A program made the position numbers and the translations under genes. 36,480 bases of DNA from a virus. Lineage: Duplodnaviria; Heunggongvirae; Uroviricota; Caudoviricetes. Shown here piece by piece: positions 1,533 to 33,135 of this stretch. The notes under the pieces are model-generated. The model did no database searches, had not been told where the DNA came from, and was given only the letters and a program-made list of their open reading frames with translations. The stretch is taken from the IMG/VR virus record IMGVR_UViG_2526164599_000008; one strand, 5' to 3'. The first letter of the stretch is position 1; each line of letters starts with the position of its first letter.

Positions 1533-1922
1533 TTACTCTTTTTTCTCCGTATCTACATCGGGTTCATCAGCAAATAGCTTGCCCTGCATCCGATCCAGTT
1601 CTTCTTTTCTTACCCGCTTAACCACGCTGTAGACCCACTGAAGCGAAACACCAAATTTGCGGGCCAGTTCATGGTGGTTACGTCCGTTAAACTCCCTGAA
1701 GATTTCCCGGTCGCGCTGACTGACCTTCCATACCATGCCCATCGGGAAATAAACGTTTTGCCCGCCCCAGACCTGCATCATGCGGTTCGCGACGGCCTGA
1801 CCAATCTGGTCGGCAATTGCGGGCTCAATATCAATAATCTCGCGAACGGTCTCAGAGGTATGCTGTGCCAGTTCCACCAGGAGTTCCGGCCCTTTACTTC
1901 GAAACTGATTCAGGTCGCTCAT
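1533..1922 (-). CDS. mor: Mor/C-family transcriptional activator of middle/late genes
   Basis: 129 aa. C-terminal block FREFNGRNHHELARKFGVSLQWVYSVVKR resembles the Mor/C helix-turn-helix region. GGGAG Shine-Dalgarno 6 nt upstream of the ATG. Last gene of the leftward early operon. Confidence 0.6.
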   Translation of the reverse strand: MSDLNQFRSKGPELLVELAQHTSETVREIIDIEPAIADQIGQAVANRMMQVWGGQNVYFPMGMVWKVSQRDREIFREFNGRNHHELARKFGVSLQWVYSVVKRVRKEELDRMQGKLFADEPDVDTEKKE

Positions 1923-9334: not shown

Positions 9335-9561
9335 GACGCCTCCTTAAGGATACCGGGGGTAACTTCTTTACCTATTGCAACCGATAGATCTCGCAAAATC
9401 CGATAAGTCAAACGACCGCGAGGTAGTTCACTTTTACCAGCCCAGCGACTGACTGCCTGGGTGACTGTTCGTGGTTCATAGCCCGCGTTAAGCGCGAACT
9501 GGCGCAAGCTACTGCCTCGTTCAACCAGCCGTGCCCGAACTTGTTGTTTGTTCATATGCAC
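9331..9561 (-). CDS. ner: Ner-like DNA-binding regulator (Ner/Nlp family)
   Basis: 76 aa. First gene of the leftward early operon, divergent from the repressor. HTH-like segment SLRQFALNAGYEPRTVTQAVSRW. Confidence 0.55.
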   Translation of the reverse strand: MHMNKQQVRARLVERGSSLRQFALNAGYEPRTVTQAVSRWAGKSELPRGRLTYRILRDLSVAIGKEVTPGILKEAS

Positions 9562-11131: not shown

Positions 11132-12337
11132 GTGGCGATTTCATTTGAGATGCTGACAGATCTGTATCGTCGTATGGAATTCCAAGAGGGGTTTCGTGTC
11201 GGTTCGCTGTTGCTCTTAGATCAGTCCGATTGTGATCTGGTTGATACTTTGCTTGATGATCCTCGTGAATATGGTCTTTCTATTGATACAGGCACTATCG
11301 CTCCAGGTAACACGATCATCCTACGTGTGACGTCACCACGGAGTGGACTGGGACTTGTGTTTTCCACCCATGAAAAATTGCTAAATGCTCCAAAGCATCA
11401 GTGCCTTGAGCCAGCTAATTACTTCATCCTAGAAACAAAGTTTCGTAATGATGATGAAGATATCCCCGTTTTCATCAGCAACTACCGGAAGATTCTCGAG
11501 TTCGTTAACCTGCTAAAAGAGGCCGCGGCCTACTTTGATAACTCAACTTGTCAGTTAGTTTTTCTGAAAAAAGAAGTTATCAAGCTATTACCGCACTTCG
11601 CTGCAGAAAATGTACAAAATTTGCAAAGAGAGTATCTTGATAACCTTATAGCTTGTTTCAATGATGATACCCATAAGGATCAGAAGCTAGATATTCTGAT
11701 TGAAAGTATCCAAGCAGTTAGTGATGGAATTGATTCACCTCTAGTATTCGCTTATTTACTGGACAATATTCAGCGTCTGCATGAAAAGTTTCTGAAAGGG
11801 TATCGTATCTACTCTTCTGGATTCTCTTATGACAAAGTAATGGATCAACTGCGTGCTGCAAAAGTCGAAGAAATGGGTAAAATCCACAAAGCGTTTTCAG
11901 ATATCCAGAACCATATACTTGGCATTCCTGTTGCCTCTGTTATCGTAGCTACCCAATTCAAAGTGGCTACGAAATGGTCAGGCCAAGGGATAACAAACAC
12001 AATAATTCTTCTGGGATGCATTTTTGCTGCAACGTTAATCTGGCTGGCACTTTCGAACCAGATGCAATCTATAAAGGCCTTAGGCGAAGAAATTGAATAC
12101 AAAGAAAAACAGATTAATAAGGAATATTCCTTCATTAAAGATGACGTGGCTGGTGTATTTAGCAGTATTTCTGCGCGACTAGACACGCAGAAACGTACGT
12201 TCTGGATTATACGTGGTGTTCTAGTTATGGGAATTATTACCGCTATCACTGTTTATTTTTGGTACACAAAACCAGCCCTTGACTTCATGCAGTACTTGAT
12301 TCACTGCATGAAGTCTTACTATTCGGTCAAAAGTTGA
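11132..12337 (+). CDS. Unknown protein with two C-terminal transmembrane helices, operonic with the NdpA-like gene
   Basis: 401 aa. GTG start 2 nt after the upstream stop with GAGG upstream. N-terminal soluble region of about 285 aa has no motif I recognise. Hydrophobic helices ITNTIILLGCIFAATLIWLALS and FWIIRGVLVMGIITAITVYFWY. Confidence 0.55.
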   Translation: MAISFEMLTDLYRRMEFQEGFRVGSLLLLDQSDCDLVDTLLDDPREYGLSIDTGTIAPGNTIILRVTSPRSGLGLVFSTHEKLLNAPKHQCLEPANYFILETKFRNDDEDIPVFISNYRKILEFVNLLKEAAAYFDNSTCQLVFLKKEVIKLLPHFAAENVQNLQREYLDNLIACFNDDTHKDQKLDILIESIQAVSDGIDSPLVFAYLLDNIQRLHEKFLKGYRIYSSGFSYDKVMDQLRAAKVEEMGKIHKAFSDIQNHILGIPVASVIVATQFKVATKWSGQGITNTIILLGCIFAATLIWLALSNQMQSIKALGEEIEYKEKQINKEYSFIKDDVAGVFSSISARLDTQKRTFWIIRGVLVMGIITAITVYFWYTKPALDFMQYLIHCMKSYYSVKS

Positions 12338-13097
12338 GGATAATGAGTTCCTTCTTGCGACTGGATTTGCCAGTGATCTTGAGGTTGTAGCTGATATCAA
12401 CCGACTGAATATTTAGACCGTTGAATGCCTGCCGCATTTCCGGGATATCGTTCACCGATATAATCATCTTCCCTTTGATCCTGCGTGCTAAATCTGCCAT
12501 ATGATCATAATTTTCTAGTCCGAACTCCACACCATAACCTTCCGTTCCCCAGTATGGAGGGTCACAGTAGAACAACGTATGCGGGCGATCATATCGTTCT
12601 ATGCACTGTTGCCAGTCCATGTGTTCTATGACCGTTCTGGAAAGCCGCAGGTGTGCCGCTGACAGTTCTTCTTCAATACGCAGCAGGTTGAAGCGTGGCG
12701 GGGATATGGTGGAGGTACCAAAGCTGTGCTCCGCCACCTTGCCTCCAAACGCCTGCTTCTGAAGGTAGTAGAACCGTGCTGCACGCTGGATATCCGTCAG
12801 TGTTTCTTCCGGGGTGATCTGCAGCCATTTGTAGATCTGCCGGCTGACCAGCGCCCATTTGAACTGGCGTACAAATTCTTCCAGATGATGTTTTACCACC
12901 CGATACAGGTTCACCAGTTCACCGTTGATATCATTAATGACTTCGATCTTGCCGGGTACCTTAAGAAAATAGAGCGCTGCTGCCCCACAAAACGGCTCCA
13001 CATAACATTCATGCGCCGGAAACAGCGGCAGGATGTGTTTTGCAAGGCGGCGTTTGCCACCAATCCATGGAACGATGGGTAATGTCTGCATTTTCAT
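12327..13097 (-). CDS. DNA N6-adenine methyltransferase, Dam-like
   Basis: 256 aa. AdoMet motif VEPFCGAAALYF and catalytic DPPY. Opening PWIGGKRRL matches the Dam family. Convergent with, and overlapping by 11 nt, the membrane-protein gene. Confidence 0.8.
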   Translation of the reverse strand: MKMQTLPIVPWIGGKRRLAKHILPLFPAHECYVEPFCGAAALYFLKVPGKIEVINDINGELVNLYRVVKHHLEEFVRQFKWALVSRQIYKWLQITPEETLTDIQRAARFYYLQKQAFGGKVAEHSFGTSTISPPRFNLLRIEEELSAAHLRLSRTVIEHMDWQQCIERYDRPHTLFYCDPPYWGTEGYGVEFGLENYDHMADLARRIKGKMIISVNDIPEMRQAFNGLNIQSVDISYNLKITGKSSRKKELIILNF

Positions 13098-13344
13098 AAT
13101 CTGTAAGCCTTTTACAATTATAAAAAATATGGCAGGCTAGTCTGGTCTCGCGAGACTGACTGAACCTCGGTCGGCTCACAGCGCATTCCTGTGGGGCGAT
13201 GGCCAGCCCGGTGTTCGGGTACCGGGCTGGTCGTTCTTTCAAAGTCATCATGCAGTGCACGTTTACATCTTCACTATTAACGCTGTTTAAAATCCGTATC
13301 CCGCCACATTTGTGATGCTGTCTCCACCAAACGAGGAGACACAC
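13098..13344. promoter_or_regulatory. Intergenic region upstream of the lysis/late operon; candidate late promoter
   Basis: About 250 bp non-coding. Contains the 12-bp palindrome GTCTCGCGAGAC and the stem-loop CCAGCCCGGT...ACCGGGCTGG. AGGAG Shine-Dalgarno before the ATG at 13345. Confidence 0.4.
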
Positions 13345-13695
13345 ATGAAAAACCTGAAAAAATTCATTCCCCCTGTTAAAAAACCTCGCCTCAGCGGCTG
13401 GCTGCTGACCTCAGTGCTGTTGCTGGGCATCATCGCTCTGGTCTCGCCACAGCAGTTGCCTGTTGTGATCTACAAGCTGGCACTTATCACGCTGGCAGCA
13501 GTGCTGGGTTACTGGCTTGACCGTTCGCTCTTCCCCAAAGCCCGTCCCGGTCAGTACCTGAAACATGACGACAGGCTGATGGCTGAAGGGCGTTTCCCGG
13601 TACAGACCGGCCTTCACCTGGTGTTTTCTGCTGCGTTAATCCGCCGTGCACTGATTGTTGCAGCGGTCTGCCTGGCTGTGGCAACAGGACTGTGA
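13345..13695 (+). CDS. Holin-like small membrane protein
   Basis: Track ORF 13312..13695 trimmed to the ATG at 13345. About 116 aa with two or three hydrophobic helices. Sits immediately upstream of the endolysin. Confidence 0.45.
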   Translation: MKNLKKFIPPVKKPRLSGWLLTSVLLLGIIALVSPQQLPVVIYKLALITLAAVLGYWLDRSLFPKARPGQYLKHDDRLMAEGRFPVQTGLHLVFSAALIRRALIVAAVCLAVATGL

Positions 13696-15383: not shown

Positions 15384-15694
15384 TGGTCGATATTACCCGG
15401 GTACGCCGCGAATCCCTGCGCTGGAGTTTGCTGGTTGCCCTGAACAAAACCCGCCCTTACACCGCCAGTGAAACGTTGCTGCTGGACGTGTCCCGCGCCA
15501 TCTACCCGGACACCACACCGCTGGAACTGCGCCGCGAACTGGATTATCTGGCTGACCGTAAAATGGTTGAGCTGGAGAAAAAACCTTCTGGCGACTGGTT
15601 TGCTGACCTGACCCGCCTCGGCGTAGACCTGGTGGAATACACCGTGGAATGTGGTCCGGGTATTGCCCGCCCGGAAAAGTACTGGAGTGAATAA
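15383..15694 (+). CDS. Hypothetical late protein
   Basis: 103-aa ORF, coupled to its neighbours, upstream of the terminase genes. Confidence 0.45.
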   Translation: MVDITRVRRESLRWSLLVALNKTRPYTASETLLLDVSRAIYPDTTPLELRRELDYLADRKMVELEKKPSGDWFADLTRLGVDLVEYTVECGPGIARPEKYWSE

Positions 15695-16239
15695 TGGCCA
15701 GACGCAGCACAATAGAAAAGCTGCCGGAAGACGTGCGCCGCTGGCTTGAACGGGCGCTGACTGAATCCGGCTTCAGCGGGTATAACGAGCTGGAGTCCCT
15801 GCTGCGTGAGCGGGGGTACGTCATCAGCAAATCCGCTATCCATCGCTATGGACAGAAGATTGAGCGCCGCTATGGTGCTATCCGTGCGGCAACAGAAGCG
15901 GCCCGCATGCTGACCGAAGGCGCAGCAGACGATCAGGATGCGCGTTCGGAGGCTGTGATAGCCCTTATTCAGACCGAGCTGTTCGAGAGTATTGTCCAGT
16001 TGCAGGAGGCGGAAGAAGGTGAAGTCGATCCTAAAGAACGCGTGGCCCTGCTGTCGAAGGTGGCGAAGAATGTGGCTACGCTGTCCCGCGCGTCCGTCAA
16101 CCTCAAAAAGTTCCAGTCTGAAGTACGGGCCAGAGCGCAGCAGGCAGCCAGCAACGCCGAGAAAATTGCCCGTAAGGGGGGACTGTCAAGCGACGCAGTA
16201 CAGGCGCTTCGTCGCGAGATTCTGGGGATTGCCACATGA
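15694..16239 (+). CDS. Terminase small subunit (Mu gp27-like)
   Basis: 181 aa, directly upstream of the large terminase. Basic N-terminal region, helical. Confidence 0.5.
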   Translation: MARRSTIEKLPEDVRRWLERALTESGFSGYNELESLLRERGYVISKSAIHRYGQKIERRYGAIRAATEAARMLTEGAADDQDARSEAVIALIQTELFESIVQLQEAEEGEVDPKERVALLSKVAKNVATLSRASVNLKKFQSEVRARAQQAASNAEKIARKGGLSSDAVQALRREILGIAT

Positions 16240-17831
16240 CAAAATCATCCGGAGTGATTTTAAACGCCGCTGGCGGCGGCCCCGAAGGGATGAGTCCCAT
16301 GGACGGGAGGAATAACCTTGCTCCCGTTTTGCCTGATACCTCGGCGCTGGATGCCCCTCCCGTTCTGTTGCCTTACCAGCAGCGCTGGGTGGCAGACACC
16401 TCTCCGCTTAAGGTGATAGAAAAGAGCCGTCGTACCGGTATTACATGGGCTGAGGCATCCGATAACGTACTGACCGCCGCCTCTTCTGCGCCAGCAGGCG
16501 GGATGAATGTGTATTACATCGCTTATAACCAGGACATGACCGTCGAATACATTCAGGCGTGTGCGATGTGGGCACGGGCATTCAACTATGCGGCCAGTGA
16601 AATTGAAGAAGGATTCTGGGAAGAGGACGACGACGACAAACACATCAGGACTTACACCATCAAATTTCCTGACTCCGGCTTTCGTATTGTTGCGCTCTCC
16701 AGCCGCCCGTCTAACCTGCGTGGCCGTCAGGGTATTATTGTTATCGACGAAGCGGCGTTCCATGAGCAACTGGACGAACTGCTGAAAGCGGCGCTGGCGA
16801 TGCTTATCTGGGGGGGAAAGGTACGCGTTATCTCCACCCATAACGGTGACGACAATCCGTTCAATACGCTTATCGGGGATATCCGTGCCGGACGTCAGGG
16901 AGGCAGCATACATCGCATCACTTTCCGGGAAGCCGTATCTGAGGGGCTGTTCCGGCGCGTCTGTCTGCGCACCGGGAAGGAATGGTCGGAGGCATCCGAG
17001 CAGGCCTGGATGGCATCGGTGTACAAATTCTACGGTGCCGGCGCATCCGAAGAGCTTGACTGTATTCCGGCCAACGGTGGCGGTGCCTGGCTGTCCCGTG
17101 CCCTGATAGAGTCCCGCATGTCCGCTGATACGCCGGTATTGCGTCTGACCTGCAAGGAAGGTTATGAACTGCTGTCTGATGAGGTTCGCTTCCGCGAGAC
17201 GCAGGACTGGCTTGATGAGTATCTGAAACCCTTGCTGGAGGCACTCCCCACTGATGCCCGCTCTTTCCTGGGGCGCGACTTTGGCCGTAGCGGTGATTTG
17301 TCGGTGGACTATCCCCTGCTGCAGGAGAAGAACCTGGTACGACGCGTGCCATTCGTACTGGAGCTGCGTAACGTGCCGTTCAGACAGCAGGAGCAAATCA
17401 CCTGGTATCTGATGGATGGCCTGCCCGGTCTGCTGGGTGCAGCGTTTGATGCCCGTGGTAATGGTGCCTATCTGGCTGAATACGCCATGCAGCGCTACGG
17501 CTCCAGCCGGGTTCAGCAGGTGATGCCAACCGAAGGCTGGTACCGGGAGCATATGCCTCCGGTCAAAGCTGCACTGGAAGACGGTAACCTGGTGGACTTA
17601 CCAAAGGATGAAGACACACTGGATGACCTGCGGGCCGTTCAGGTGGTGAACGGTGTCCCCCGCGTACCGGAGCAACGCTCAAAAGCAAAGGCTGACGGTG
17701 GTAAACGCCACGGGGATTCAGCCATCGCACTGGCGCTGGCGTATTTCGCCAGCCGTGAAATTAACAAAGGGCCGGTGAAGGCAAGCTCACGCCGTCGTCG
17801 TCAGGCGGCCCGTATGCTGGAGGGATTCTGA
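16236..17831 (+). CDS. Terminase large subunit (Mu gp28-like)
   Basis: 531 aa. Position between the small terminase and portal. Acidic patch EEDDDDKH. Size typical of large terminases. Confidence 0.7.
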   Translation: MTKSSGVILNAAGGGPEGMSPMDGRNNLAPVLPDTSALDAPPVLLPYQQRWVADTSPLKVIEKSRRTGITWAEASDNVLTAASSAPAGGMNVYYIAYNQDMTVEYIQACAMWARAFNYAASEIEEGFWEEDDDDKHIRTYTIKFPDSGFRIVALSSRPSNLRGRQGIIVIDEAAFHEQLDELLKAALAMLIWGGKVRVISTHNGDDNPFNTLIGDIRAGRQGGSIHRITFREAVSEGLFRRVCLRTGKEWSEASEQAWMASVYKFYGAGASEELDCIPANGGGAWLSRALIESRMSADTPVLRLTCKEGYELLSDEVRFRETQDWLDEYLKPLLEALPTDARSFLGRDFGRSGDLSVDYPLLQEKNLVRRVPFVLELRNVPFRQQEQITWYLMDGLPGLLGAAFDARGNGAYLAEYAMQRYGSSRVQQVMPTEGWYREHMPPVKAALEDGNLVDLPKDEDTLDDLRAVQVVNGVPRVPEQRSKAKADGGKRHGDSAIALALAYFASREINKGPVKASSRRRRQAARMLEGF

Positions 17832-19327
17832 TGGCGAGGGGTATCTGGGTTTCACCCGATGAATTTGTTGCTTTTTCTGAGCCTCAGAAATCACTGACCG
17901 CGCAGATTGCCTCCCGCAGCCGCGCGATCGACTTTTACGGACTGGGCATGTATCTGCCCAATCCTGATCCCATTCTCAAGGCTCAGGGACGGGATATCCG
18001 TATCTACCGCGAACTGCGCACCGACCCGCTGGTCGGGGGCTGTATCCGCAGACGTAAAGCAGCGCTTAAATCGCTGGAGCGTGGACTGGAGCGTGGTCAC
18101 GCCTCTGCCCGGGTCTTCCGTTTCATCCGCGACATGCTCGACGATCTGGATCTGTCCCGCATCATCGGTGAAATGAGCGATGCCGTGCTCTACGGGTATC
18201 AGCCCTGTGAAATCATGTGGGGCCGTTCGGTCAGGTCGTGGGCGGTGACGGATATTGTCGGCAAACCGCCTGAGTGGTTTCAGTTTGATACGGACAACTG
18301 CCTGCGCTTCCGGGCGCGTGATGCGGGTGTGGAGGGTGAGCTGCTGTCACCGTCAAAATTCGTGGTGCCGGCACAGGATGCCTCGTATGACAATCCTTAC
18401 GGTTTCCCGGACCTGTCCATGTGCTTCTGGCCGGTCGCCTTCAAGAAAGGCGGGATGAAATTCTGGCTCCGCTTTGCCGAAAAGTTTGGCTCCCCGTGGG
18501 TGATCGGTAAGCACCCGAGGGGTGCAAATGATGCAGAGATTGAAAAACTGCTGGACTCCATGGAGCAGATGGTGGAGGACGCGGTGGCCGCCATCCCCGA
18601 TGACAGCAGCATCGAACTCAAAGCCGCGGATGGTAAGGCGGACAGCAGCGAGGTATTCCGCGAGCTGATCACACTGTCACGCAGTGAGATCTCCATTGCA
18701 TTACTCGGTCAGAATCAGACCACGGAAGCGAACAGTAACAAGGCCTCTGCACAGGCCGGGCTGGAGGTAACGGCTGATATCCGCGATGCGGATGCGGACA
18801 TCATTCAGGCGGCAGTGAATCAGGTCATCAGAACGGTGGTCACCCTGAACTTCGGCGATGTGCCGTGTCCGGTCTGGGCCATGTGGGAACAGGAGGCCAT
18901 TGATGACACCCGTGCCACCCGCGACGAAAAACTCACCCGGGCGGGTCTGCGTCTGACCCCGCAGTACTTCAAGCGTGAGTACCAACTGCAGGACGGCGAT
19001 ATTGACGAGACACCACCGTCGGAACGACAGAATAACATGCTGCCGCTGTCATTTGCCGAGGCGATTGATGCTGATATTCAGGCTCAGCAGCAGCTTGACG
19101 ACGCGCTGGACATTCTGATGAACGGAGGCGCGTTAAATGGCACGCTGGAACCCGTCCTGGCACCTCTGTTCAGGCGGGTCGAAAATGGGGTTAACCCGTC
19201 TGAGCTGCTGGGCGAACTGGCGGAGCTCTACCCTCAGATGAACACGGACGATCTGCAGGAGCGGCTGGCCCGCATTCTCTTTGTGACAAATATCTGGGGG
19301 CGTCTGCATGAGCGTGACAACGGCTGA
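17831..19327 (+). CDS. Portal protein (Mu gp29-like)
   Basis: 498 aa, immediately after the terminase. Size and order as in Mu-like head modules. Confidence 0.65.
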   Translation: MARGIWVSPDEFVAFSEPQKSLTAQIASRSRAIDFYGLGMYLPNPDPILKAQGRDIRIYRELRTDPLVGGCIRRRKAALKSLERGLERGHASARVFRFIRDMLDDLDLSRIIGEMSDAVLYGYQPCEIMWGRSVRSWAVTDIVGKPPEWFQFDTDNCLRFRARDAGVEGELLSPSKFVVPAQDASYDNPYGFPDLSMCFWPVAFKKGGMKFWLRFAEKFGSPWVIGKHPRGANDAEIEKLLDSMEQMVEDAVAAIPDDSSIELKAADGKADSSEVFRELITLSRSEISIALLGQNQTTEANSNKASAQAGLEVTADIRDADADIIQAAVNQVIRTVVTLNFGDVPCPVWAMWEQEAIDDTRATRDEKLTRAGLRLTPQYFKREYQLQDGDIDETPPSERQNNMLPLSFAEAIDADIQAQQQLDDALDILMNGGALNGTLEPVLAPLFRRVENGVNPSELLGELAELYPQMNTDDLQERLARILFVTNIWGRLHERDNG

Positions 19328-20129
19328 ACTGGCGTACTGCATGACGCTTCCCCCGAAGCGGGCAATCAACTACCTGAAGTCCAAAGGGTATCAGATTACC
19401 TGGGACTGGGAAGAAATGTGGCAGGAGGCCCATGCCCGCGCCTTTACCGTTGCTAAAGTGACCCGCCTGGATATCCTGGAAGATATTCGCGGGGCACTGC
19501 AGCAGGCTGTCGATGAAGGAAAAACCGATCGCTGGTTCCGGCAGGAGCTGGAGCCGGTGCTGAAGCGTAAGGGATGGTGGGGACCACGTGACACGACTGA
19601 CCCGGTAACGGGTGAGCCAGTCACCATTCAGCAGGGCAGTCCGTGGCGGCTCGATACCATCTTTCGCACCAATATGTCCGTACTCTACAGCGCCGGTCGT
19701 TGGGCGGAACAGATGGAAAACGTCGACGACAGGCCGTACTGGATGTATACCGGCATCAACGACAGCCATACCCGCAGGAGCCATCTGGCGCTGCATGGTC
19801 TGGTGCTGCGCTGGGATGACCCGTTCTGGCAGGCATTTTACCCGCCGAACGGCTGGCGCTGCCGCTGTAGTGTGATTGCCCTGAGTGCGGCGGATGTACG
19901 TGCCCGTGGCCTGAAGGTTATCAGCTCCGGCTCTGCCATGGGCCAGGAACTGAAACTGGTCTCAGAGAAAACCGGCGAAATGCGGAACGTGGCCACCTTT
20001 AATACCGGCACCACGAAGGTGACCACCGACGTCGGCTGGTCTTATGCACCGGGGGCAGCATACCGTCCCGACCTGGCCCGCTATCAGGGTACGCTTCAGC
20101 CACTGGCACAACAGGAACTGAGAGGATAA
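19308..20129 (+). CDS. Head morphogenesis protein (Mu F-like)
   Basis: 273 aa. Conserved block DSHTRRSHLALHGLVLRWDDPFW...GWRCRCSV matches the Mu F-family signature from memory. Confidence 0.65.
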   Translation: MSVTTAELAYCMTLPPKRAINYLKSKGYQITWDWEEMWQEAHARAFTVAKVTRLDILEDIRGALQQAVDEGKTDRWFRQELEPVLKRKGWWGPRDTTDPVTGEPVTIQQGSPWRLDTIFRTNMSVLYSAGRWAEQMENVDDRPYWMYTGINDSHTRRSHLALHGLVLRWDDPFWQAFYPPNGWRCRCSVIALSAADVRARGLKVISSGSAMGQELKLVSEKTGEMRNVATFNTGTTKVTTDVGWSYAPGAAYRPDLARYQGTLQPLAQQELRG

Positions 20130-20131
20130 CA

Positions 20132-20590
20132 ATGGCTTCCGATAACCTGGTCAGTATCACCATTAACGATAAATCCCTGCGCCGGAGCCTCCGTGCGCTG
20201 GATCTTGCTGCCACAGACCTGGAGCCCGCGATGCGCAAAATTGCCGGAACCCTGCTGGCGGAAACACAGTTTAACTTTCTTGATGAGGGGCGTCCGGGGT
20301 GGATGCCCTCGCTGGCAGCGGAAGAGCGTGACGGGCAGACACTGCAGGATACCGGGCGTCTGATGGGGTCAGTATCAACCGACCATGACGACCGGCAGGC
20401 TGTTGTGGGGACCAACGTTGTTTACGGTGCCATTCACCAGTTCGGGGGTAAAACGGGGCGTAATGAGTCTGTTGAACTTCCGGCCCGCCCGTTCCTGCCG
20501 GTGACGGGGGATGGAGAACTACAGCCTGAAGTGGTAATCCCCATCCTCGATACCATTGTCCGCCATCTTGAATCAGCGGCCCGTCGCTGA
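20132..20590 (+). CDS. Virion morphogenesis protein (Mu G-like)
   Basis: 152 aa following the F-like gene, as in Mu. Confidence 0.5.
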   Translation: MASDNLVSITINDKSLRRSLRALDLAATDLEPAMRKIAGTLLAETQFNFLDEGRPGWMPSLAAEERDGQTLQDTGRLMGSVSTDHDDRQAVVGTNVVYGAIHQFGGKTGRNESVELPARPFLPVTGDGELQPEVVIPILDTIVRHLESAARR

Positions 20591-20804
20591 GTTTTCTCTC
20601 TTCAGGCGGGTGATTTATCATTGCCAGCGAATGAGGGGCTGTATTACCTTTATAAAGGCTTTACAGCCTCTGTTTTATAACCGCCTCCGGTTCACCGTAT
20701 TGCTTTCCCTGTCCTTCTCCCCTGATGTTTTCTAAAGCAGATTAAAATCGCCGGGCCTGCATTTCTCACAAACTGTCTCCGACAACATAACGCGGGACAG
20801 CAAA
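20591..20804. promoter_or_regulatory. Intergenic gap in the head module with nested palindrome; candidate late promoter and/or terminator
   Basis: About 214 bp non-coding. GGCTGTA...CCTTTATAAAGG...TACAGCC followed by CTGTTTTAT. Mu has a C-dependent promoter upstream of gene I at the equivalent position. Confidence 0.4.
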
Positions 20805-21920
20805 ATGTCAGCCATTCACATTTTTAAAGCCGGTACTCATACCGATATGCACGGCAAAAAACTGCCGTTCACGCCAGACGATCTTGCCGCCTGCGTGAAA
20901 GCCTATGACCCGTCCGTCCATGAAGCACCACTCGTGATTGGTCATCCCAGAACGGAAGACCCGGCGTGGGGCTGGGTGAAAGCCCTGTCGCTCAGCGGCG
21001 TCGATCTGATGGCAGAGCCTGCCCAGCTGGACCCGCAGTTTGCTGAGATGGTCACCGACGGACGATTCAAAAAAGTGTCCGCCTCTTTCTACCTCCCGGA
21101 TTCACCGTCCAATCCGAAGCCCGGCGTGCTCTACCTGCGCCATGTGGGCTTTCTCGGGGCACAGCCACCTTCCGTCAAGGGGCTGAAACAGGTGTCCTTC
21201 AGTGAGCAGGAAGAAGGTGTGGTGGAGTTCGCCGACTGGCAGGCCATCACGAATGCCTCCCTGTGGGGAAAGCTGCGCGATTTTCTGATCGCCCGCTTCA
21301 GTCTGGACGAAGCAGAAAAAGTCCTGCCGGAATGGCAGCTCAACAATCTGCGCGAAGAGGCGTACCGCGACACACCGTCGCAGGATGCAGCAGGTGCGCA
21401 ATTCAGTGAGACAGGCCAGGTGCCGTCTTCCGCAAGTAACGAGGAATCATCGATGACAAAAGAAGAGATTGAAGCCCTTCAGGAGGAGAACCGCCGCCTG
21501 AAGCAGCAGGCTGCTGATCGCGATGCGCGTGATGCACAGGTCAGACAGGAGCAACTGCATAAGGACAATGTGGCCTTTGCAGAAAAACTGGTCGCAGAGG
21601 GCCGTCTGGCTCCCCGCGCCTCCTCCGTGGTGGTTGCCCTGCTGGATGCCGTCGCCGGTGGCGACAAGCCGGTGGAGTTTGCTGAGGGGGAAAGCCGCAC
21701 ACCGCTGGCCACCGCCTTTCGTTCATTGCTCTCCGACGGGGAGCCGGTGATGAATTTCGCCGAACAGGCCACAAAAGAGCGTGTCGGCGACACGGTGAAG
21801 GTGGATGTGGCAGAGTTTGCGGAAGCCGATCCTGAGCGTCTGGCCCTGCATCAGAAAGCAGTGGCCCTGTCCAAAAAAGAAGGCATCAGCTATGAGGCTG
21901 CTGTCGCACGCTGCCTGTAA
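20805..21920 (+). CDS. Head maturation protease / scaffold (Mu I-like)
   Basis: 371 aa, N-terminal region resembles Mu I. C-terminal half is charged and helical (scaffold-like). Confidence 0.6.
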   Translation: MSAIHIFKAGTHTDMHGKKLPFTPDDLAACVKAYDPSVHEAPLVIGHPRTEDPAWGWVKALSLSGVDLMAEPAQLDPQFAEMVTDGRFKKVSASFYLPDSPSNPKPGVLYLRHVGFLGAQPPSVKGLKQVSFSEQEEGVVEFADWQAITNASLWGKLRDFLIARFSLDEAEKVLPEWQLNNLREEAYRDTPSQDAAGAQFSETGQVPSSASNEESSMTKEEIEALQEENRRLKQQAADRDARDAQVRQEQLHKDNVAFAEKLVAEGRLAPRASSVVVALLDAVAGGDKPVEFAEGESRTPLATAFRSLLSDGEPVMNFAEQATKERVGDTVKVDVAEFAEADPERLALHQKAVALSKKEGISYEAAVARCL

Positions 21921-21934
21921 TTTAAGGAGAGAGC

Positions 21935-22888
21935 ATGTCTGATTACTTAAAAGGTAAACGTGTCGTTGATCCGGTACTGACCAGTATCGCCCGTGGCTAT
22001 AAAAATGCCGCATTCATCGGCGAACGTATTTTCCCCGTCGTGCTGACGGACAAGGAAGGCGTGCGTGTACCGACCTTCGGGAAAACCGCCTTTGTGGAAT
22101 ATGACACCGAGCGTGCCGTCGGGGCGGACAGCAATGTTCTGGTTCGTGAAAAAACAGGCACGCTGGACCTGGTGCTGGGTGAACACGATCTGGCTGCGCC
22201 GGTGGACTATCGCGAGCAGGCGGAGTCCATGTTTAACGAAGAGAGCAAGGCCATCCGTCGCGCCACGAATGGCGTGAACCTGCGCCGTGAACTTATCGCT
22301 GCCCGTCTGGCTCAGGATGAAAAGGTCTACCGTACCGGGCACGTCAAAAAACTGACAGCCAGTGATCGCTGGGCCGGTGGTAAGGGGGACCCCATCGGGG
22401 TGATTGAAGCCGGTATGGAAGCGGTCCGTACGGCCACGGGGCTGCGTCCTAACCTGATGACCATGGGGGCCGGCGTGATGGCGCTGCTGAAGTTCCACCC
22501 GGCGATTCAGGCCGCCATCGGAGCCAACGAACGCAAGCGCATCACCACAGAAATCCTGCAGGACCTCTTTCAGATCGAAGAGATCGTCATCGGTGCCCCA
22601 GTCTCCCTGCCGTCCATGAAAGCGGCAATGGATAAGAACAGCGTGCCGGCGGATATCTGGGGAGACAATCTGATGCTGCACTATGTCGGCAAACCGCAGC
22701 CGGGGGCGGACAGCGCGGACGAGAACGAGCCGTCCTTCGGCTACACCCTGCGTCGTAAGGGGATGCCTGTTGCCGACAAATACGACGGAGCCGGTGGCAA
22801 GGTGAAGTACTGCCGTTATACCGATATCTACAAAGTCGCCGTGGTTGGTGGCGATGCCGGGTATCTCATTACCGGTATCAGTAAATAA
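21935..22888 (+). CDS. Major capsid protein
   Basis: 317 aa directly after the protease/scaffold, with a strong upstream AGGAG. Size typical of major head proteins. Confidence 0.7.
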   Translation: MSDYLKGKRVVDPVLTSIARGYKNAAFIGERIFPVVLTDKEGVRVPTFGKTAFVEYDTERAVGADSNVLVREKTGTLDLVLGEHDLAAPVDYREQAESMFNEESKAIRRATNGVNLRRELIAARLAQDEKVYRTGHVKKLTASDRWAGGKGDPIGVIEAGMEAVRTATGLRPNLMTMGAGVMALLKFHPAIQAAIGANERKRITTEILQDLFQIEEIVIGAPVSLPSMKAAMDKNSVPADIWGDNLMLHYVGKPQPGADSADENEPSFGYTLRRKGMPVADKYDGAGGKVKYCRYTDIYKVAVVGGDAGYLITGISK

Positions 22889-22897
22889 GGAGGCGTT

Positions 22898-23236
22898 ATG
22901 GGAACCACTCAGCAGGTCATTCTGATCACAACCGTAACGGCAGGGGCAGCACTGGCACAGCAGCGTTTTGTCGGGGCAGATAATACCCCCTGTAAAGCCG
23001 GTGCCGCAGCGCTCGGGGTTGCCGAAGTGGATGCTGTTACCGGCGACAGCACGCCGGTGAGCGTTCTGGGCATTATTGCTGTCGAGGCCGGGGCCGCTGT
23101 CAGCCGTGGTGTGGCTGTTCAGTCAGATGCTCAGGCCAGAGCCGTGCCGCAGTCCGGCGACGGTAAATCCTGTGGTATTGCACTTGATGAAGCCGGGGGT
23201 GAAGGCGACGTCATTCGTATCCTGCGCGGGGTGTGA
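22898..23236 (+). CDS. Small Ala/Gly/Val-rich head-associated protein
   Basis: 112-aa ORF just after the capsid gene, with GGAGG upstream. Confidence 0.4.
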   Translation: MGTTQQVILITTVTAGAALAQQRFVGADNTPCKAGAAALGVAEVDAVTGDSTPVSVLGIIAVEAGAAVSRGVAVQSDAQARAVPQSGDGKSCGIALDEAGGEGDVIRILRGV

Positions 23237-23237
23237 C

Positions 23238-23684
23238 ATGTACTGCACCCTGGAGGATTTGCTTGCGCAGGTGCCGGAGCGGACGCTTATCGAGCTCACC
23301 AGTGAAGAGATGGACTTCGACTCGCCTGCAACAGTGAATACCCGTGTGGTGGACAGCTGTATCCGCTATGCCGACGAGCTGATTGATGCCCATCTGCGCG
23401 GACGCTATATCCTGCCACTGGCAGAGATACCGACTGTTCTGCGGGACATTGCCATCACGCTGGTCCGTTACCGGCTCTACGCCCGCCGCCCGGAAGGTGA
23501 CCTCCCGGATACGGTGAAGGATGACCACAAAGAAGCGCTGCGGCAACTCAGGGAGTTACGTGATAACAGGCTCACGCTGGGGCTGCCGTCCACTCAGAAA
23601 GATGTGCCTGAGCCTGGCGAGTTTCGTGTACGCAGTCGCCCGGCCACTTTCGGCGGTCGTGACGGTTTACTGGAGAAATACTGA
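23238..23684 (+). CDS. Head-tail connector-type protein (Mu gp36-like)
   Basis: Track ORF 23076..23684 trimmed to the ATG at 23238, 1 nt after the upstream stop. MYCTLEDLLAQVPERTLIELT... Confidence 0.45.
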   Translation: MYCTLEDLLAQVPERTLIELTSEEMDFDSPATVNTRVVDSCIRYADELIDAHLRGRYILPLAEIPTVLRDIAITLVRYRLYARRPEGDLPDTVKDDHKEALRQLRELRDNRLTLGLPSTQKDVPEPGEFRVRSRPATFGGRDGLLEKY

Positions 23685-24148
23685 TGAACGTTCTGCCCGT
23701 CCTTGATGCGGTACTGGCCCGGTTACGCGAGAAGCTGCCGCAACTGCAGGTGGAGTACTTCCCGGAGAAACCGGCTGAATATCGCCTGAACCATCCGGTT
23801 GGCGCGTTGCTGCTGAGCTATGCCGGTTCGCGCTTTGACAGGCCGGATGATACCGGTGCGGTGATCCAGTCTCAGACTATCCAGCTCTGCGTCACGGTGG
23901 TCTTCCGCCAGCTCAACGGTAAAAAAGGGGCGATTAATGTCCTGGATGCTGTCCGCCGCATTCTCGGTGGCTACACCCCGCCCGGCTGCCGCCGCCGTAT
24001 CTGGCTGACCCGCGAGGTGTTTATCGGTGAAGTCAGGGGGCTGTGGCAATACGCCCTCGACTTCGCGACTGAAAGCATCTTTATCGAAGACAGCGATTTA
24101 CCGTCCGGCCCGCTGTTAACCGAAGTGAACTATGAGGAAAGCGAGTGA
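23684..24148 (+). CDS. Head-tail joining protein (Mu gp37-like)
   Basis: 154 aa, coupled to the upstream gene. Confidence 0.4.
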   Translation: MNVLPVLDAVLARLREKLPQLQVEYFPEKPAEYRLNHPVGALLLSYAGSRFDRPDDTGAVIQSQTIQLCVTVVFRQLNGKKGAINVLDAVRRILGGYTPPGCRRRIWLTREVFIGEVRGLWQYALDFATESIFIEDSDLPSGPLLTEVNYEESE

Positions 24149-24399
24149 TGAAAGCATACCGCTATTCCGGCCCGGCCAGCGGCGTCACGCTGTCGGACGG
24201 AACCGAAATCCTGCTCTGGCCGGGGAAGGCGGTTTCCCTGCCGGAGGAGCATGACTACGTGAAGGTACTGGTGGCGCTGAAGCATCTGACGCCGGTACCA
24301 GAAGATACTAAACCCGCCGTCACACCGGCTGTGCAGTCACCAAAGCGCAGAAGCAGCAGTGACAGCGAAGTGAAAACGGAGGACGCCCATGGCAGCTAA
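24145..24399 (+). CDS. Hypothetical small protein
   Basis: 84 aa immediately upstream of the sheath gene. Confidence 0.4.
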   Translation: MMKAYRYSGPASGVTLSDGTEILLWPGKAVSLPEEHDYVKVLVALKHLTPVPEDTKPAVTPAVQSPKRRSSSDSEVKTEDAHGS

Positions 24400-25816
24400 C
24401 TATCTGCATGGTCCCGAAACCATTGAGGTGGAAAACGGAGCCCGCCCGGTTAAAACGGTGAAATCTGCCGTTATTGGCCTGATTGGTACCGCCCCGATGG
24501 GGGATGTCAATACGCTGGTACAGTGCCTGTCTGAGAAAGACGCAGCGGCATTTGGCAGCCAGTTCACCGGCTTTACCATTCCGCAGGCGCTGGATGCGAT
24601 TTATGACCATGGTGCAGGCACCGTTCTGGTCATTAACGTCCTCGACCCGGCGAAACATAAAACGGCGATCGAGGATGAGGTGGTTACCTTTGACAAATCG
24701 ACAGGGCAGGCCAGACTGGCGCATCCGGTTGTCGCTAATGTGGTGGTGAAAAACAGTGAAGGCAGCACCACCCACACGGCGAACACGGACTACCGTGTTG
24801 ATGCGCAGGCGGGTGTGCTCACGAACCTGGGCAAGGCTATTGAGGCCGGTGGCAGCGTGAAGGTGAGCTATGAGTACGCGGACCCGTCGAAGGTGACTGC
24901 GGCGGACATCATCGGCGGGGTGAACAGCGCCGGAAACCGAACCGGCATGAAGCTGCTTAACGACAGCTTCAACCTGTACGGCTATTTCGCCAAAATTCTG
25001 ATTGCGCCGGTGTTCTGCACCCAGAAGAGTGTCGCAGTTGAGCTTATCGCCATGGCAGAGAAGCTGGGCGCGGTAACCTACATTGATGCGCCTGTCGGTA
25101 CCACCTTTGCACAGGCTCTGGCAGGTCGTGGCCCGGAAGGCACCATCAACTTCAATACCAGCTCCGACCGCGTCCGTCTGTGCTATCCGCATGTGAAGGT
25201 ATATGACCCGGTGACAAACACAGAGCGTCTGGAGCCGCTCAGCCAGCGTGCAGCAGGTCTGCGTGCCAGAGTCGATCTGGACAAGGGCTACTGGTGGTCA
25301 TCCTCCAATCAGGAGATTCTGGGGATCACCGGCGTGGAGCGCCAGCTGTCCGCGATGATTGATGACCCGCAGAGTGAGGTAAACCTGCTTAACGAACAGG
25401 GGATCACCACGGTATTCAGCAGTTACGGCAGCGGCCTTCGTCTGTGGGGTAACCGGACGGCAGCATGGCCAACGGTCACCCATATGCGTAACTTTGAGAA
25501 CGTTCGCCGCACCGGTGATGTGATCAACGAGTCCATTCGTTATTTCAGCCAGCAGTACATCGACATGCCGATTACTCAGGCGCTGATTGATGCACTGACG
25601 GAGTCGGTCAACGCCTACGGTCGCAAAATGACTGGTGATGGTGCGGTACTGGGCTTCCGTTGCTGGTTTGATCCGGCCCGCAATCCGGAGACGGAGCTGG
25701 CCGCCGGGCACCTGTTGCTGAGCTACAAATATACGCCACCACCGCCGCTGGAGCGACTGACGTTTGAGACTGAGATCACCTCGGAATACCTGTTAACCCT
25801 GAAAGGGGGCAACTGA
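24389..25816 (+). CDS. Tail sheath protein
   Basis: 475 aa followed directly by a tube-sized gene. Contractile-tail gene order sheath, tube, chaperone, tape measure. Confidence 0.75.
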   Translation: MAANYLHGPETIEVENGARPVKTVKSAVIGLIGTAPMGDVNTLVQCLSEKDAAAFGSQFTGFTIPQALDAIYDHGAGTVLVINVLDPAKHKTAIEDEVVTFDKSTGQARLAHPVVANVVVKNSEGSTTHTANTDYRVDAQAGVLTNLGKAIEAGGSVKVSYEYADPSKVTAADIIGGVNSAGNRTGMKLLNDSFNLYGYFAKILIAPVFCTQKSVAVELIAMAEKLGAVTYIDAPVGTTFAQALAGRGPEGTINFNTSSDRVRLCYPHVKVYDPVTNTERLEPLSQRAAGLRARVDLDKGYWWSSSNQEILGITGVERQLSAMIDDPQSEVNLLNEQGITTVFSSYGSGLRLWGNRTAAWPTVTHMRNFENVRRTGDVINESIRYFSQQYIDMPITQALIDALTESVNAYGRKMTGDGAVLGFRCWFDPARNPETELAAGHLLLSYKYTPPPPLERLTFETEITSEYLLTLKGGN

Positions 25817-26621: not shown

Positions 26622-26718
26622 CATCACAGGGGCTCCGGCCCCTTCTTCTTAATCTCCTTTAATATCCGTCACGCGCTTCTCCCGACATACTGCCCTGAAC
26701 TTACACAGGAGCACAATC

Positions 26719-32733: not shown

Positions 32734-32787
32734 GCTTTTTAAACGCCTTTAATATCAGCGTTCCCGCACGGGGGCAATACTGCCCCC

Positions 32788-33135
32788 ATGAAAACAACCT
32801 CAGTATTCTGGCAACCGACCCTGCAGGCTCCCGGCGAAATTGTCCGGGGGCTGGATGATATCCGGCAGGCGATTCAAATTATCCTGCGGACTCCCCGCGG
32901 CAGCGACCCGCATCGCCCGGAGTTCGGCAGCAATCTGCATCTTTATATCGACTGGCCTGTAGACCGGGCCATTCCGCATGTGGTGCGCGAATCCGTCGAT
33001 GCCATCCGGCGCTGGGAGCCCCGCTGCCAGCTTATGTCAGTTAAACCCGCCGTCGACGGCGAACATCTTACGCTCCGGGTGAGCTGGAAAGGCTCAGACG
33101 GACAGACCCGGACTCAGGAGCTGCTATGGCGCTGA
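32788..33135 (+). CDS. Baseplate protein W-like (gp25/GPW family)
   Basis: 115 aa. GLDDIRQAIQIILRTPRGSDPHRPEFGSNL matches the GPW/gp25 signature. Confidence 0.7.
   Translation: MKTTSVFWQPTLQAPGEIVRGLDDIRQAIQIILRTPRGSDPHRPEFGSNLHLYIDWPVDRAIPHVVRESVDAIRRWEPRCQLMSVKPAVDGEHLTLRVSWKGSDGQTRTQELLWR

Follow-up and report, generated by a model that had tools for sequence, protein, structure and literature searches.

The gap between the G-like and I-like head genes is a conserved control region. Judged by sequence and layout, it probably corresponds, in the BcepMu family, to the G-I control region of Mu and forms the junction of two late transcription units. A late promoter of the Mu C/Mor type (P2) is very probably present at 20732-20775, apart from the nested palindrome that precedes it. 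The palindrome may act as a terminator, as the arm of a gyrase site, or as the site of another protein. The features of the region are listed in Table 1.

The window, i.e., the whole stretch of 36,480 nt that was analysed, is a BcepMu-like transposable prophage with 99.6% identity to Escherichia phage PhiKM. The phage belongs to Bcepmuvirus and has the rve-type transposase and the inverted early region. The left prophage end was located near 1370, approximately 19.2 kb from the gap, and the right end lies beyond the window. This prophage type was found in approximately 12% of complete E. coli genomes (639/5426), O25b:H4/ST131 strains included. Relatives of the prophage were also found in many plant, insect, and human pathogens.

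Table 1. Coordinates of the G-I gap features and of related sites in the window.
Feature	Position	Strand	Description
Mor/C-family activator gene	1533..1922	-	PF08765, E = 1.3e-43; presumed trans partner of the four promoters
P1	13277..13320	+	same promoter architecture as P2; upstream of holin gene
Hairpin A (TCAGCG-GCCCGT-CGCTGA), then GTTTTCTCTCTT	20573..20602	+	overlaps G stop; weak terminator-like; -8.8 kcal/mol
G-like gene (PF05069)	ends 20590		5' border of gap
Conserved block CAGGCGGGTGATTTATCATTGCC	20603..20625	.	resembles Mu gyrase core GCGG(C/G)TGATTTTAT, opposite orientation
Nested palindrome/hairpin	20634..20671	+	10-bp outer stem, 3x3 internal loop, inner CCUU/AAGG stem
Decamer CTTTATAAAG	20648..20657	.	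perfect 10-bp palindrome; deeply conserved core
CTTTACAG	20659..20666	.	degenerate second copy, 11 nt after decamer
GTTTTATAA, U-rich tail	20672..20680	+	directly after nested hairpin; window's clade only
CTAA-AGCAGA-TTAA dyad	20732..20745	+	predicted Mor-family activator site; centre 20738.5, ~-43 from predicted start
CAAACT, -10-like hexamer	20769..20774	+	no -35 element
Leader hairpin CUGUCUC...GGGACAG	20773..20799	+	-10.7 kcal/mol, z = -3.0
Predicted transcription start	20781..20782	+	placed at hexamer end plus 7-8 nt
I-like gene	starts 20805		3' border of gap
Hairpin plus T-run preceding P3	26628-26643	+	terminator-like
P3	26649..26692	+	same architecture; upstream of tail chaperone and tape-measure genes
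P4	32739..32782	+	same architecture; upstream of baseplate gene at 32788

The gap comprises 214 nt (20591-20804). The preliminary description called it the only large non-coding gap of the head module, and this was borne out, i.e., no other gap in 15694-24400 is longer than about 15 nt. Its length was 204-217 nt in every close relative. Among 80 species-level loci with the G/I gene pair, a gap of 190-250 nt was found in most. An Rfam scan of 20000-21400 (E <= 10) gave chance-level matches only, all with E > 4.

A small protein encoded in the gap was considered as a rival explanation. A 41-codon ORF with a GTG start lies at 20610-20735, and the annotation of Klebsiella phage KP12 lists it as a hypothetical protein. 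The window, KP12, and clade 2 all keep this frame open, and the clades differ by a 9-nt indel, a multiple of three. However, the conserved nucleotides TTTACAGCC fall in different frames in two clades through a 1-nt indel, and the clades also disagree in the stop codon and in the C-terminal frame. In BcepMu, a stop interrupts the frame two codons ahead of the motif, and the ORF has no usable ribosome-binding site. Therefore, the conservation of the gap is at the nucleotide level. The ORF was rejected for its inconsistent frame between clades, and a coding role of the gap is most improbable.

The elements of P2 are an activator dyad and a -10-like hexamer, located 65-100 nt downstream of the palindrome. 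The dyad is imperfectly symmetric (CTAA/TTAA), and its centre is 30.5 nt 5' of the hexamer CAAACT. The hexamer has A at position 2 and T at position 6, and the -35 position reads AATCGC. A sigma-70 consensus scan of the + strand of the gap detected no promoter. The pattern YTAA-N6-TTAAWATC-N20-ANNCTG was matched four times without mismatch in 36.5 kb, compared with 0.00 matches expected from shuffles. It was derived from three sites, and the fourth, at 26649, is an independent match. All four sites are intergenic, on the + strand, and directly 5' of late operons. In outline, the late-promoter architecture reads TTAA-N6-TTAA, 23 nt, nAnnCT. The presumed activator gene is labelled 'positive regulator of late transcription' in the PhiKM annotation, and it is the only Mor-family gene seen within the window.

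The promoter elements are conserved far beyond the window. The block around the dyad, TTTTCTAAAGCAGATTAAAA, was invariant across 22 distinct gap sequences and shares 15 of 16 positions with BcepMu. In BcepMu, TAAAGCCGATTAAAAGACC was found before the holin gene and again within the G-I gap. All four sites show the hexamer pattern nAnnCT, which is also retained in other lineages. Where the I protein of a relative has 73% identity, the 20-nt spacer of P1, P2, and P3 has been rewritten, but dyad, hexamer, and their exact spacing are unchanged. Across the 80 species-level loci, the pattern was found 158 times on the late-gene strand versus 5 times on the other. In the beta-proteobacterial relatives, 6 nt separate the hexamer from the ATG. 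This implies a leaderless start and fits a start 7 nt after the hexamer.

An internal late promoter had been suggested for the gap on its first reading and, by implication, for the palindrome. A promoter equivalent to Mu PI very probably exists in the gap, but the palindrome lies outside its predicted elements. The palindrome is a dyad and contains a -10-like TATAAA, which would suit an activator site or a late promoter. However, it is not repeated at the late operons of P1, P3, and P4, and it is placed approximately 130 nt upstream of the predicted start. No fitting -35 element or extended -10 was found there, and the late-promoter motif that does recur is a different sequence approximately 85 nt downstream. 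It is very unlikely that the palindrome itself serves as activator site or promoter.

The nested palindrome was confirmed with the sequence first described, i.e., GGCTGTA (20637-20643), CCTTTATAAAGG (20647-20658), TACAGCC (20662-20668), and CTGTTTTAT (20670-20678). An independent repeat search recovered arms at 20634-20656 and 20649-20671, 83% complementary. The RNA fold was -20.0 kcal/mol, compared with -10.3 +/- 2.7 for shuffles (z = -3.6), and none of 200 shuffles was as stable. No further copy of the palindrome was found in the window. By cross-locus comparison, its outer stem is lineage-specific and is wholly missing in clade 2. Substitutions in the 3' arm preserve pairing via G-U, both between the window and KP12 and in two further loci (L068 and L129). 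In the comparison with KP12, G and the 5' half of the gap are both approximately 94% identical to the window. The unusual similarity of this 5' half is explained by a mosaic boundary at approximately 20668. Only cross-genus conservation was counted as evidence.

The hairpin also bears on termination. In a terminator scan of the 20-kb late region, the two best + strand matches were located just 5' of P3 and P2, and hairpin A was the second-best. In the window's clade, GUUUUAU directly follows the nested hairpin. In the KP12-type clade, the same nested hairpin is followed by CCCCGCTTTGC, without a U-tract. Because the KP12 clade has no U-tract and clade 2 has no outer stem, termination cannot be the conserved function of the palindrome. 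The partial terminator proposed earlier is plausible for the window's clade, where the hairpin and GUUUUAU are matched by a nested hairpin with UUUUAU in Mu. It is not the whole story, given the KP12 clade and a decamer that is kept beyond the hairpin.

The most conserved part of the palindrome is its inner core, the decamer CTTTATAAAG. Of 68 related loci from gamma- and beta-proteobacteria, 56 have it, counted as TTTATAAA, in the G-I gap. Its density was 3.9 per kb in the G-I gap versus 0.019 per kb outside, i.e., an enrichment of approximately 200-fold. The window contains a single exact copy, and two matches with one mismatch, both within coding DNA. In BcepMu, the decamer site is at 51% of genome length. 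The second copy is a true tandem in some lineages, and in Pseudomonas and Jeongeupia it lies on the opposite side. In these two genera, the orientation of the decamer relative to transcription is also flipped. As the decamer is kept as a sequence across gamma- and beta-proteobacteria, also when flipped, it points to a function of double-stranded DNA rather than RNA. A literature search on the decamer found nothing relevant.

A rival explanation is that the 5' half of the gap (about 20547-20680) is a central strong gyrase site (SGS) like that of Mu. The cut would fall between GGCGGGT and GATTTAT near 20611-20614, and the nested palindrome would be the arm wrapped on GyrA, with the phased A/T-rich segments TATTA, TTTATAAA, CTTTAC, and TTTTATAA. 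Such a site would help the prophage ends meet for replicative transposition, and the hairpin or terminator role would be secondary. The preliminary description had omitted that the Mu SGS occupies this same G-I position. A strong gyrase site between gpG and gpI is reported in both Mu and FluMu (PMC2628397), and the annotated cut in Mu is 20 nt after the G stop. In the window, GCGGGTGATTTAT, 21 nt after the G stop, equals the SGS core of Mu nuB103, GCGGGTGATTTTAT, except for one T. The core block is conserved among Escherichia, clade 2, Photorhabdus, and Xenorhabdus. Loci of the last two genera have the identical 18-mer GCGGGTGATTTATCATTG in a gap that has otherwise diverged, and GGCGGGTGATTTA is kept in clade 2.

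The arrangement around the core would also suit a gyrase site. In the right arm of the Mu SGS, the nested hairpin spans +27 to +69, and in the window it spans +23 to +60 from the predicted cut. In a weak test, the A/T periodicity of 10-11 bp in the arm ranked in the top 1-4% of the window, and that of the Mu right arm in the top 3-13% of Mu. In clade 2, a 9-nt deletion has changed the distance between core and decamer by approximately one helical turn. The only copy of the decamer in the genome is near the middle, and BcepMu has it at a similarly central position.

However, several results count against a gyrase site. Of random 214-nt stretches, 22% resemble the wild-type Mu core at least as well as the gap does, and ungapped and local alignments of the Mu SGS with the gap stayed at background level. 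The core is inverted relative to Mu. It is missing in relatives from Pectobacterium, Dickeya, Serratia, Burkholderia, and Pseudomonas that still keep the decamer. Because gyrase recognises DNA mostly indirectly, its sites would not be expected to hold an invariant 10-mer. The Typhi-type prophage gap is 99% identical to that of the window, and the S. Typhi CT18 prophage site was reportedly among those that failed in Mu when Oram and Pato studied them in 2004. A review (PMC10052514) names the site of the E. coli O157 Sakai prophage as the only one of the tested substitutes that worked in Mu. Taken with the evidence in its favour, a Mu-like gyrase site is possible, though not likely.

A proxy gyrase score was built from the published 133-nt consensus. 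The Mu SGS and the window site were both in the top 1% of single positions. With a region-level null, p was 0.62 for Mu and 0.53 for the window, a test powerless even for the true Mu site. For this reason, the score was dropped as evidence.

The decamer could instead be the site of a sequence-specific dimeric DNA-binding protein, recognizing CTTTATAAAG with its TTTACAG/CTGTAAA half-copies. The protein would be phage-encoded or a conserved host nucleoid protein, acting on the late promoter from approximately -130 or organising prophage DNA. In this case, the ability to form a hairpin would follow incidentally from the symmetry of the site. Both the retention of a perfect palindrome and its enrichment in the gap agree with such a site, as do its occurrence in either orientation and its occasional tandem arrangement at 11-nt spacing. 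The distances from decamer to dyad centre cluster at 66-67, 76-78, 84-88, 97-99, 107-111, and 130 nt, i.e., in steps of about a helical turn. However, lineages with 72-74 nt and 92 nt break this phasing.

Searches for the protein or for related sites did not strengthen this explanation. The decamer motif was found neither in the operator region nor at the other three late promoters. The operator region (9335-9547) and the gap have no motif in common, so a repressor or Cro site is unlikely. When the IHF, LexA, TyrR, and Fur consensuses were compared with the conserved blocks by eye, none fitted across lineages; by sequence inspection, the IHF match fails in lineages that are 1 nt shorter. No ParB-like partner was found among ten early-region and cargo ORFs scanned against Pfam, two of which had no match. 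The Pfam matches were to DUF3102, wHTH, CI-like repressor, NdpA-like, rve, AAA+, DUF7168/DUF2786, and GemA. No candidate protein for the decamer was identified, and a dedicated binding protein is judged quite unlikely.

A more novel explanation was also considered. Throughout the family of BcepMu-type transposable phages, from Escherichia to Burkholderia and Pseudomonas, a conserved central architectural site could exist, with the decamer and its flanking half-copies as recognition core. Such a site would serve as the Mu SGS does, organising prophage DNA so that the ends synapse for replicative transposition. It would act by a discrete sequence-specific contact with gyrase or with a different protein. 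This explanation is tentative and rather doubtful. If true, the site would be in helical phase with the adjacent late promoter, and replication topology and late transcription could be coupled.

A further hairpin is located in the leader before I. The 3' arm covers a weak Shine-Dalgarno sequence, GGGA (20793-20796), and the 5' arm precedes the predicted start. The stems covary across lineages, i.e., CTGTCTC/GGGACAG, CTGCCTCTAT/ATAGAGGCAG, and GCTGTGCGC/GCGCACAGC. With the 5' arm placed ahead of this start, a transcript would have to read through from upstream to fold into the hairpin. Mu PI has an analogue.

The favoured reading of the gap, i.e., a junction of two late transcription units, can be set out as follows. 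Directly after G lie two terminator-like hairpins, i.e., the small hairpin A at the stop codon and the palindrome with GUUUUAU. Transcripts from the holin-proximal P1 are probably stopped or attenuated there, or have their 3' ends stabilised. At the core of the palindrome is the family-wide conserved DNA motif CTTTATAAAG. Approximately 65 nt beyond the palindrome, a Mor/C-family dimer is predicted to bind the CTAA-N6-TTAA dyad near -43. The bound activator would let sigma-70 RNA polymerase use the weak CAAACT without a -35 element, with a start near 20781. The P2 transcript would carry the protease/scaffold, capsid, and downstream genes. The leader hairpin would mask the ribosome-binding site in read-through RNA only. 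This model starts from what was observed, i.e., the architecture, its recurrence at four sites, the conservation, and the resemblance to Mu. Activator binding and dependence, the start site, termination efficiency, and read-through masking are its predicted parts.

The late-promoter architecture allows all late operons of these prophages to be annotated. The promoter offers a direct entry to studies of induction and expression, and recent findings on the Mu Mor/C activators become testable in a second phage genus. The conserved decamer is an easily mutated target for asking whether transposable phages besides Mu need a central DNA site.

Several known systems resemble parts of the gap. Intrinsic, i.e., Rho-independent, terminators likewise have a stable hairpin followed by a U-rich run at an operon end, just before the next promoter, and the same arrangement precedes P3. 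Unlike these terminators, the nested hairpin is long and interrupted, its U-run is missing in sister clades, and its apical sequence is conserved far past what a terminator needs. The leader hairpin is comparable to the 'fold-back inhibition' of IS10 and IS50, a protection against outside transcription in which a hairpin that needs sequence upstream of the element's own start masks the ribosome-binding site. Here, silencing limited to read-through RNA would follow from the predicted start of a phage late promoter.

The Mu SGS and the window have a similar core, GCGGnTGATTT(T)AT, though this likeness is not statistically secure, and a downstream arm with possibly phased A/T tracts and a nested hairpin of approximately -20 kcal/mol. 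In Mu, the equivalent nested hairpin is in the same place, within the SGS, with -19.8 kcal/mol, and is followed by UUUUAUCUU (UUUUAU). The difference is that a discrete 10-bp palindrome is the conserved element here, and the arms are dissimilar in sequence.

In Mu, the site of C is a dyad of 16 bp with its centre at -43.5, and the late promoters have no -35 element (PMC2582627). The Mu late promoters PI, Plys, PP, and Pmom, activated by C of the Mor/C family, have a -10-like hexamer, as do the four sites of the window. In both phages, four copies per genome precede late operons, and 4-bp half-sites are 6 bp apart with the dyad centre approximately 31 nt upstream of the hexamer. At Mu Pmom, the C site TTAT-N6-ATAA has its centre 31.5 nt before the -10, compared with 30.5 nt here. 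The half-site is TTAA here and TTAT/ATAA in Mu, and one Mor-family gene was seen in the window whereas Mu has both Mor and C. The discriminator ACTGCC is common to the window and Mu Plys. Mu PI shares with P2 the position between G and I, the hexamer CAAACT, the 30-nt distance from hexamer to ATG, and a leader hairpin straddling the predicted start. The Mu layout is matched point for point, i.e., core block, nested hairpin with U-run, activator site, CAAACT, leader hairpin, and ATG, which suggests that the G-I control region as a whole is ancient.

The non-coding gap between the Mu G-like and Mu I-like head genes (G-I gap) lies at 20591-20804 in the window sequence, exactly as given in the preliminary description together with the sequences named in it, and the gene layout bore out that no other gap of such size occurs within the head module. 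The gap was 204-217 nt long in all close relatives. Among 80 species-level loci (Enterobacterales, Pseudomonas, Burkholderiales, and Neisseriales), the majority had a gap of approximately 190-250 nt. Because it is kept so persistently in compact phage genomes, the G-I gap is functional non-coding DNA. It corresponds, in the BcepMu family, to the G-I control region of Mu. As read from the sequence, terminator-like hairpins come first, followed by a central DNA motif that is conserved, then a predicted late promoter of the Mor/C type, and finally a leader with secondary structure.

Twenty-two distinct gap sequences from viral contigs were aligned, which gave two clades and four conserved blocks. 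Between the window prophage and the KP12/Phi06 type (KP12 is a related Klebsiella phage), a sharp mosaic boundary was found at 20668/20669. G and the 5' part of the gap are approximately 94% identical between them, whereas the 60 nt past the boundary are approximately 50% identical and the I protein only 73%. The near-identity of the 5' half to KP12 was ruled out as special conservation, as G is equally similar. At locus L143 (1287-1500), the G-I gap is 99% identical to that of the window, and the I protein is labelled Salmonella Typhi by NCBI; a block resembling a gyrase core reads GGTGGG there, where the window has GGCGGG.

A 41-codon GTG ORF at 20610-20735, i.e., hypothetical protein WAY79742.1 in phage KP12, was rejected as coding. 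The annotation is probably spurious because the conserved nucleotides fall in different frames across clades. In BcepMu, the equivalent ORF contains an in-frame stop. The gap region matched no Rfam family and showed no relation to the operator region.

The nested palindrome was recovered independently, with arms at 20634-20656 and 20649-20671. Its fold has -20.0 kcal/mol (z = -3.6), and 0 of 200 shuffles folded equally well. The outer stem GGCTGTA/TACAGCC, the source of the nesting, is found in clade 1 only; in clade 2, a G+C hairpin of 13-16 bp sits immediately 5' of block (c) instead. Some G+C hairpin follows shortly after the G stop in most lineages, and several 3'-arm substitutions retain pairing via G-U. 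In the window's clade, the 10-bp outer stem of the palindrome is followed by GUUUUAU, a terminator-like form. A separate small hairpin over the G stop, then GTTTTCTCTC, is one of the two best + strand terminator-like matches of the late region. The other is a hairpin 5' of the tail promoter P3, which runs straight into the P3 dyad as a second terminator-promoter junction. A nested hairpin of striking similarity occupies the equivalent place in Mu (outer stem of 9 bp, inner stem of 4 bp, -19.8 kcal/mol, followed by UUUUAUCUU). The partial terminator proposed earlier is plausible for the window's clade, but termination cannot be the conserved function of the palindrome, because the KP12-type hairpin lacks a U-tract and the outer stem is absent from clade 2.

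The inner decamer CTTTATAAAG, which has one exact copy in the window, is kept as sequence in Escherichia, Photorhabdus, Pectobacterium, Serratia, and Arsenophonus, and also in Pseudomonas, Burkholderia, Pandoraea, Zoogloea, and Jeongeupia. Of 68 loci, 56 had the motif TTTATAAA in the gap, where its density was 3.9 per kb versus 0.019 per kb in the flanks. A half-copy, TTTACAG, usually lies 11 nt after the decamer, and sometimes a true tandem copy is present. Such duplications with 11-nt spacing, CCTTTATAAACCTTTATAAAGG and CCTTTATAAAGCTTTATAAACC, were seen in the Plautia stali symbiont (L093, ~8822-8845) and Arsenophonus (L136, ~8834-8857). In Pseudomonas and Jeongeupia the half-copy is on the opposite side, so the composite is inverted there relative to transcription. 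Symmetric complementarity outside the core showed a modest overall rise (6.3 of 13 positions versus 4.9 in shuffles). The distance from decamer centre to promoter dyad centre clusters at approximately 67, 77, 86, 98, 109, and 130 nt, whereas distances of 72-74 and 92 nt fall outside these clusters. The clustering suggests helical phasing. Together, sequence conservation, half-copies, inversion, modest complementarity, and distance clusters point to a core that would act on double-stranded DNA and to which some lineages have added hairpin arms. The conserved decamer is worth experiments.

In Mu, the same gap contains the strong gyrase site, SGS (PMC2628397; PMC3820752), and according to a review it can be replaced by the Sakai prophage site only (PMC10052514). 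The annotated cut is 20 nt past the G stop, and the window has GCGGGTGATTTAT 21 nt past the G stop, matching the core GCGGGTGATTTTAT of the Mu nuB103 fragment (PMC6379681 supplement). That the G-I gap of the window holds a similar gyrase site is nevertheless unlikely. Several enterobacterial lineages retain the core-like block, but many lineages that keep the decamer lack it; the block is no more similar to wild-type Mu than expected by chance, and its orientation is inverted. The palindrome would sit in the downstream arm like Mu's nested hairpin, and A/T periodicity in this arm ranks within the top 1-4% of the window. The arms are dissimilar to those of the Mu site. A consensus-based gyrase score lacked power for Mu itself. 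Among the SGS substitutes that failed was reportedly the prophage site of S. Typhi CT18, and a Typhi-type prophage has a gap 99% identical to that of the window, which also argues against a gyrase site.

The window region showed 99.6% identity to Escherichia phage PhiKM, genus Bcepmuvirus, and 639 of 5426 complete E. coli genomes carried the G-I gap region. PhiKM similarity begins at 1370, which puts the left prophage end close to this position; repeated ATGGGAAGA motifs, probably transposase-binding repeats, follow (1370-1450). The right end is outside the window, which stops within a tail-fibre assembly gene (35912-36480). Among the cargo that separates the repressor gene from the holin promoter (10122-11129 and 12327-13097, the latter on the - strand) are a homologue of the 37-kDa nucleoid-associated protein NdpA/YejK (PF04245, E = 1e-80) and an N6-adenine methyltransferase of the Dam-like type. 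Immediately 5' of the holin promoter P1, the sequence segment varies among otherwise near-identical prophages and is therefore a cargo-exchange spot.

Genes, predicted late promoters, and conserved elements of the prophage (window positions unless stated)
Feature	Coordinates	Strand	Description
Mor-family activator	1533-1922	-	Pfam
P1	13277-13320	+	TTAA-N6-TTAA, 23 nt, nAnnCT; before holin gene
Holin	13312-13695		Pfam
Mu F	19308-20129		Pfam
Mu G	20132-20590		Pfam
BcepMu gp32/Mu I equivalent	start 20805		protease/scaffold, 371 residues
Capsid protein	21935-22888		Pfam
Best terminator-like site, late region	26628-26652	+	AGGGGC-TCCG-GCCCCT then TCTTCTT
P3	26649-26692	+	TTAA-N6-TTAA, 23 nt, nAnnCT; before tail-chaperone/tape-measure genes
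P4	32739-32782	+	TTAA-N6-TTAA, 23 nt, nAnnCT; before baseplate genes
Inverted repeats at late promoters	13319-13340, 20773-20799, 26689-26712, 32770-32787; Mu (L060) 1523-1553
Block (b)			GGCGGGTGATTTA; 22-sequence alignment
Block (c)			CCTTTATAAAGG(C)TTTACAGCC; 22-sequence alignment
Block (d)			TTTTCTAAAGCAGATTAAAA; invariant, 22-sequence alignment
Block (e)			ACTGTCnCCGACAAC...CGGGACAGCAAAATG; 22-sequence alignment

The only parts kept 5' of the holin gene, whichever cargo gene precedes, are ...TTAACGCTGTTTAAAATC and, after 23 nt, CTGTCTCC... Blocks (d) and (e) of the gap have the same bipartite form and spacing. The pattern YTAA-N6-TTAAWATC-N20-ANNCTG, built from three sites with the 26649 site left out, had four zero-mismatch matches in the window (shuffles expect 0.00), i.e., 13277, 20732, 26649, and 32739, all intergenic and on the + strand. 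These sites (P1-P4) directly precede the lysis/terminase, head, tail, and baseplate operons, respectively. Their -10-like hexamers are GATGCT, CAAACT, CATACT, and AATACT; the late promoters have no -35 element, and a sigma-70 consensus scan of the + strand of the gap gave no match. In relatives, P1, P2, and P3 retained dyad, hexamer, and spacing, with the spacer sequence replaced. Over the 80 loci, the pattern occurred 158 times on the late strand versus 5 on the other. Beta-proteobacterial relatives have the hexamer (GATCAT and similar), 6 nt, and then ATG, as expected if transcription starts 7 nt past the hexamer and the mRNA is leaderless. At P4 (32776-32790) and at the I-gene promoter of BcepMu/Burkholderiales relatives (L061 9731-9751 and other beta-proteobacterial loci), the predicted start falls on the A of ATG. 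Leaderless mRNAs are suggested for both.

Mu late promoters have -10 hexamers, no -35 hexamers, and an imperfect dyad of 16 bp, centred at -43.5, to which a C dimer binds (PMC2582627; PMC4461284). In the Mu sequence, 31.5 nt separate the centre of the Pmom site TTAT-N6-ATAA from the hexamer TAAGAT downstream; for the dyads of the window, the distance is 30.5 nt. In Mu PI, a right half-site ATAACC is accompanied by the hexamer CAAACT, which lies 30 nt from the ATG that starts I; hexamer and ATG spacing are identical in P2. The -10 and discriminator of Mu Plys, TAGACTGCC, resemble (C/A)ATACTGCC of the window, and the four late promoters correspond in number to Plys, PI, PP, and Pmom. From this comparison of geometry, hexamer, and spacing, the internal late promoter is placed at 20732-20782, with a predicted start near 20781 and putative binding of a Mor-family protein. 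The gap promoter belongs to a well-known kind, of which it is a new member. An internal late promoter had been proposed for the gap and is supported as a prediction, but the palindrome was rejected as the promoter: it does not recur at other late operons and lies approximately 130 nt 5' of the predicted start.

Between hexamer and ATG, the P2 leader forms a hairpin (-10.7 kcal/mol, z = -3.0), and the stems of the leader hairpins showed strong covariation among lineages and genera. Its 5' arm starts at the final hexamer bases and its 3' arm lies over a weak ribosome-binding site. Every late promoter has an inverted repeat whose 5' end is at or next to the -10-like hexamer (at P4, the loop contains the hexamer) and whose 3' end reaches the ribosome-binding site or the bases immediately ahead of ATG. 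The predicted start is 3' of, or inside, the 5' arm in every case. If the predicted start is right, transcripts from P2 would lack the 5' arm, so only read-through RNA could mask the ribosome-binding site. These hairpins straddling predicted start sites are worth experiments. The same arrangement is found at P1, P3, P4, and Mu PI, and masking in read-through RNA only would resemble the 'fold-back inhibition' of IS10.
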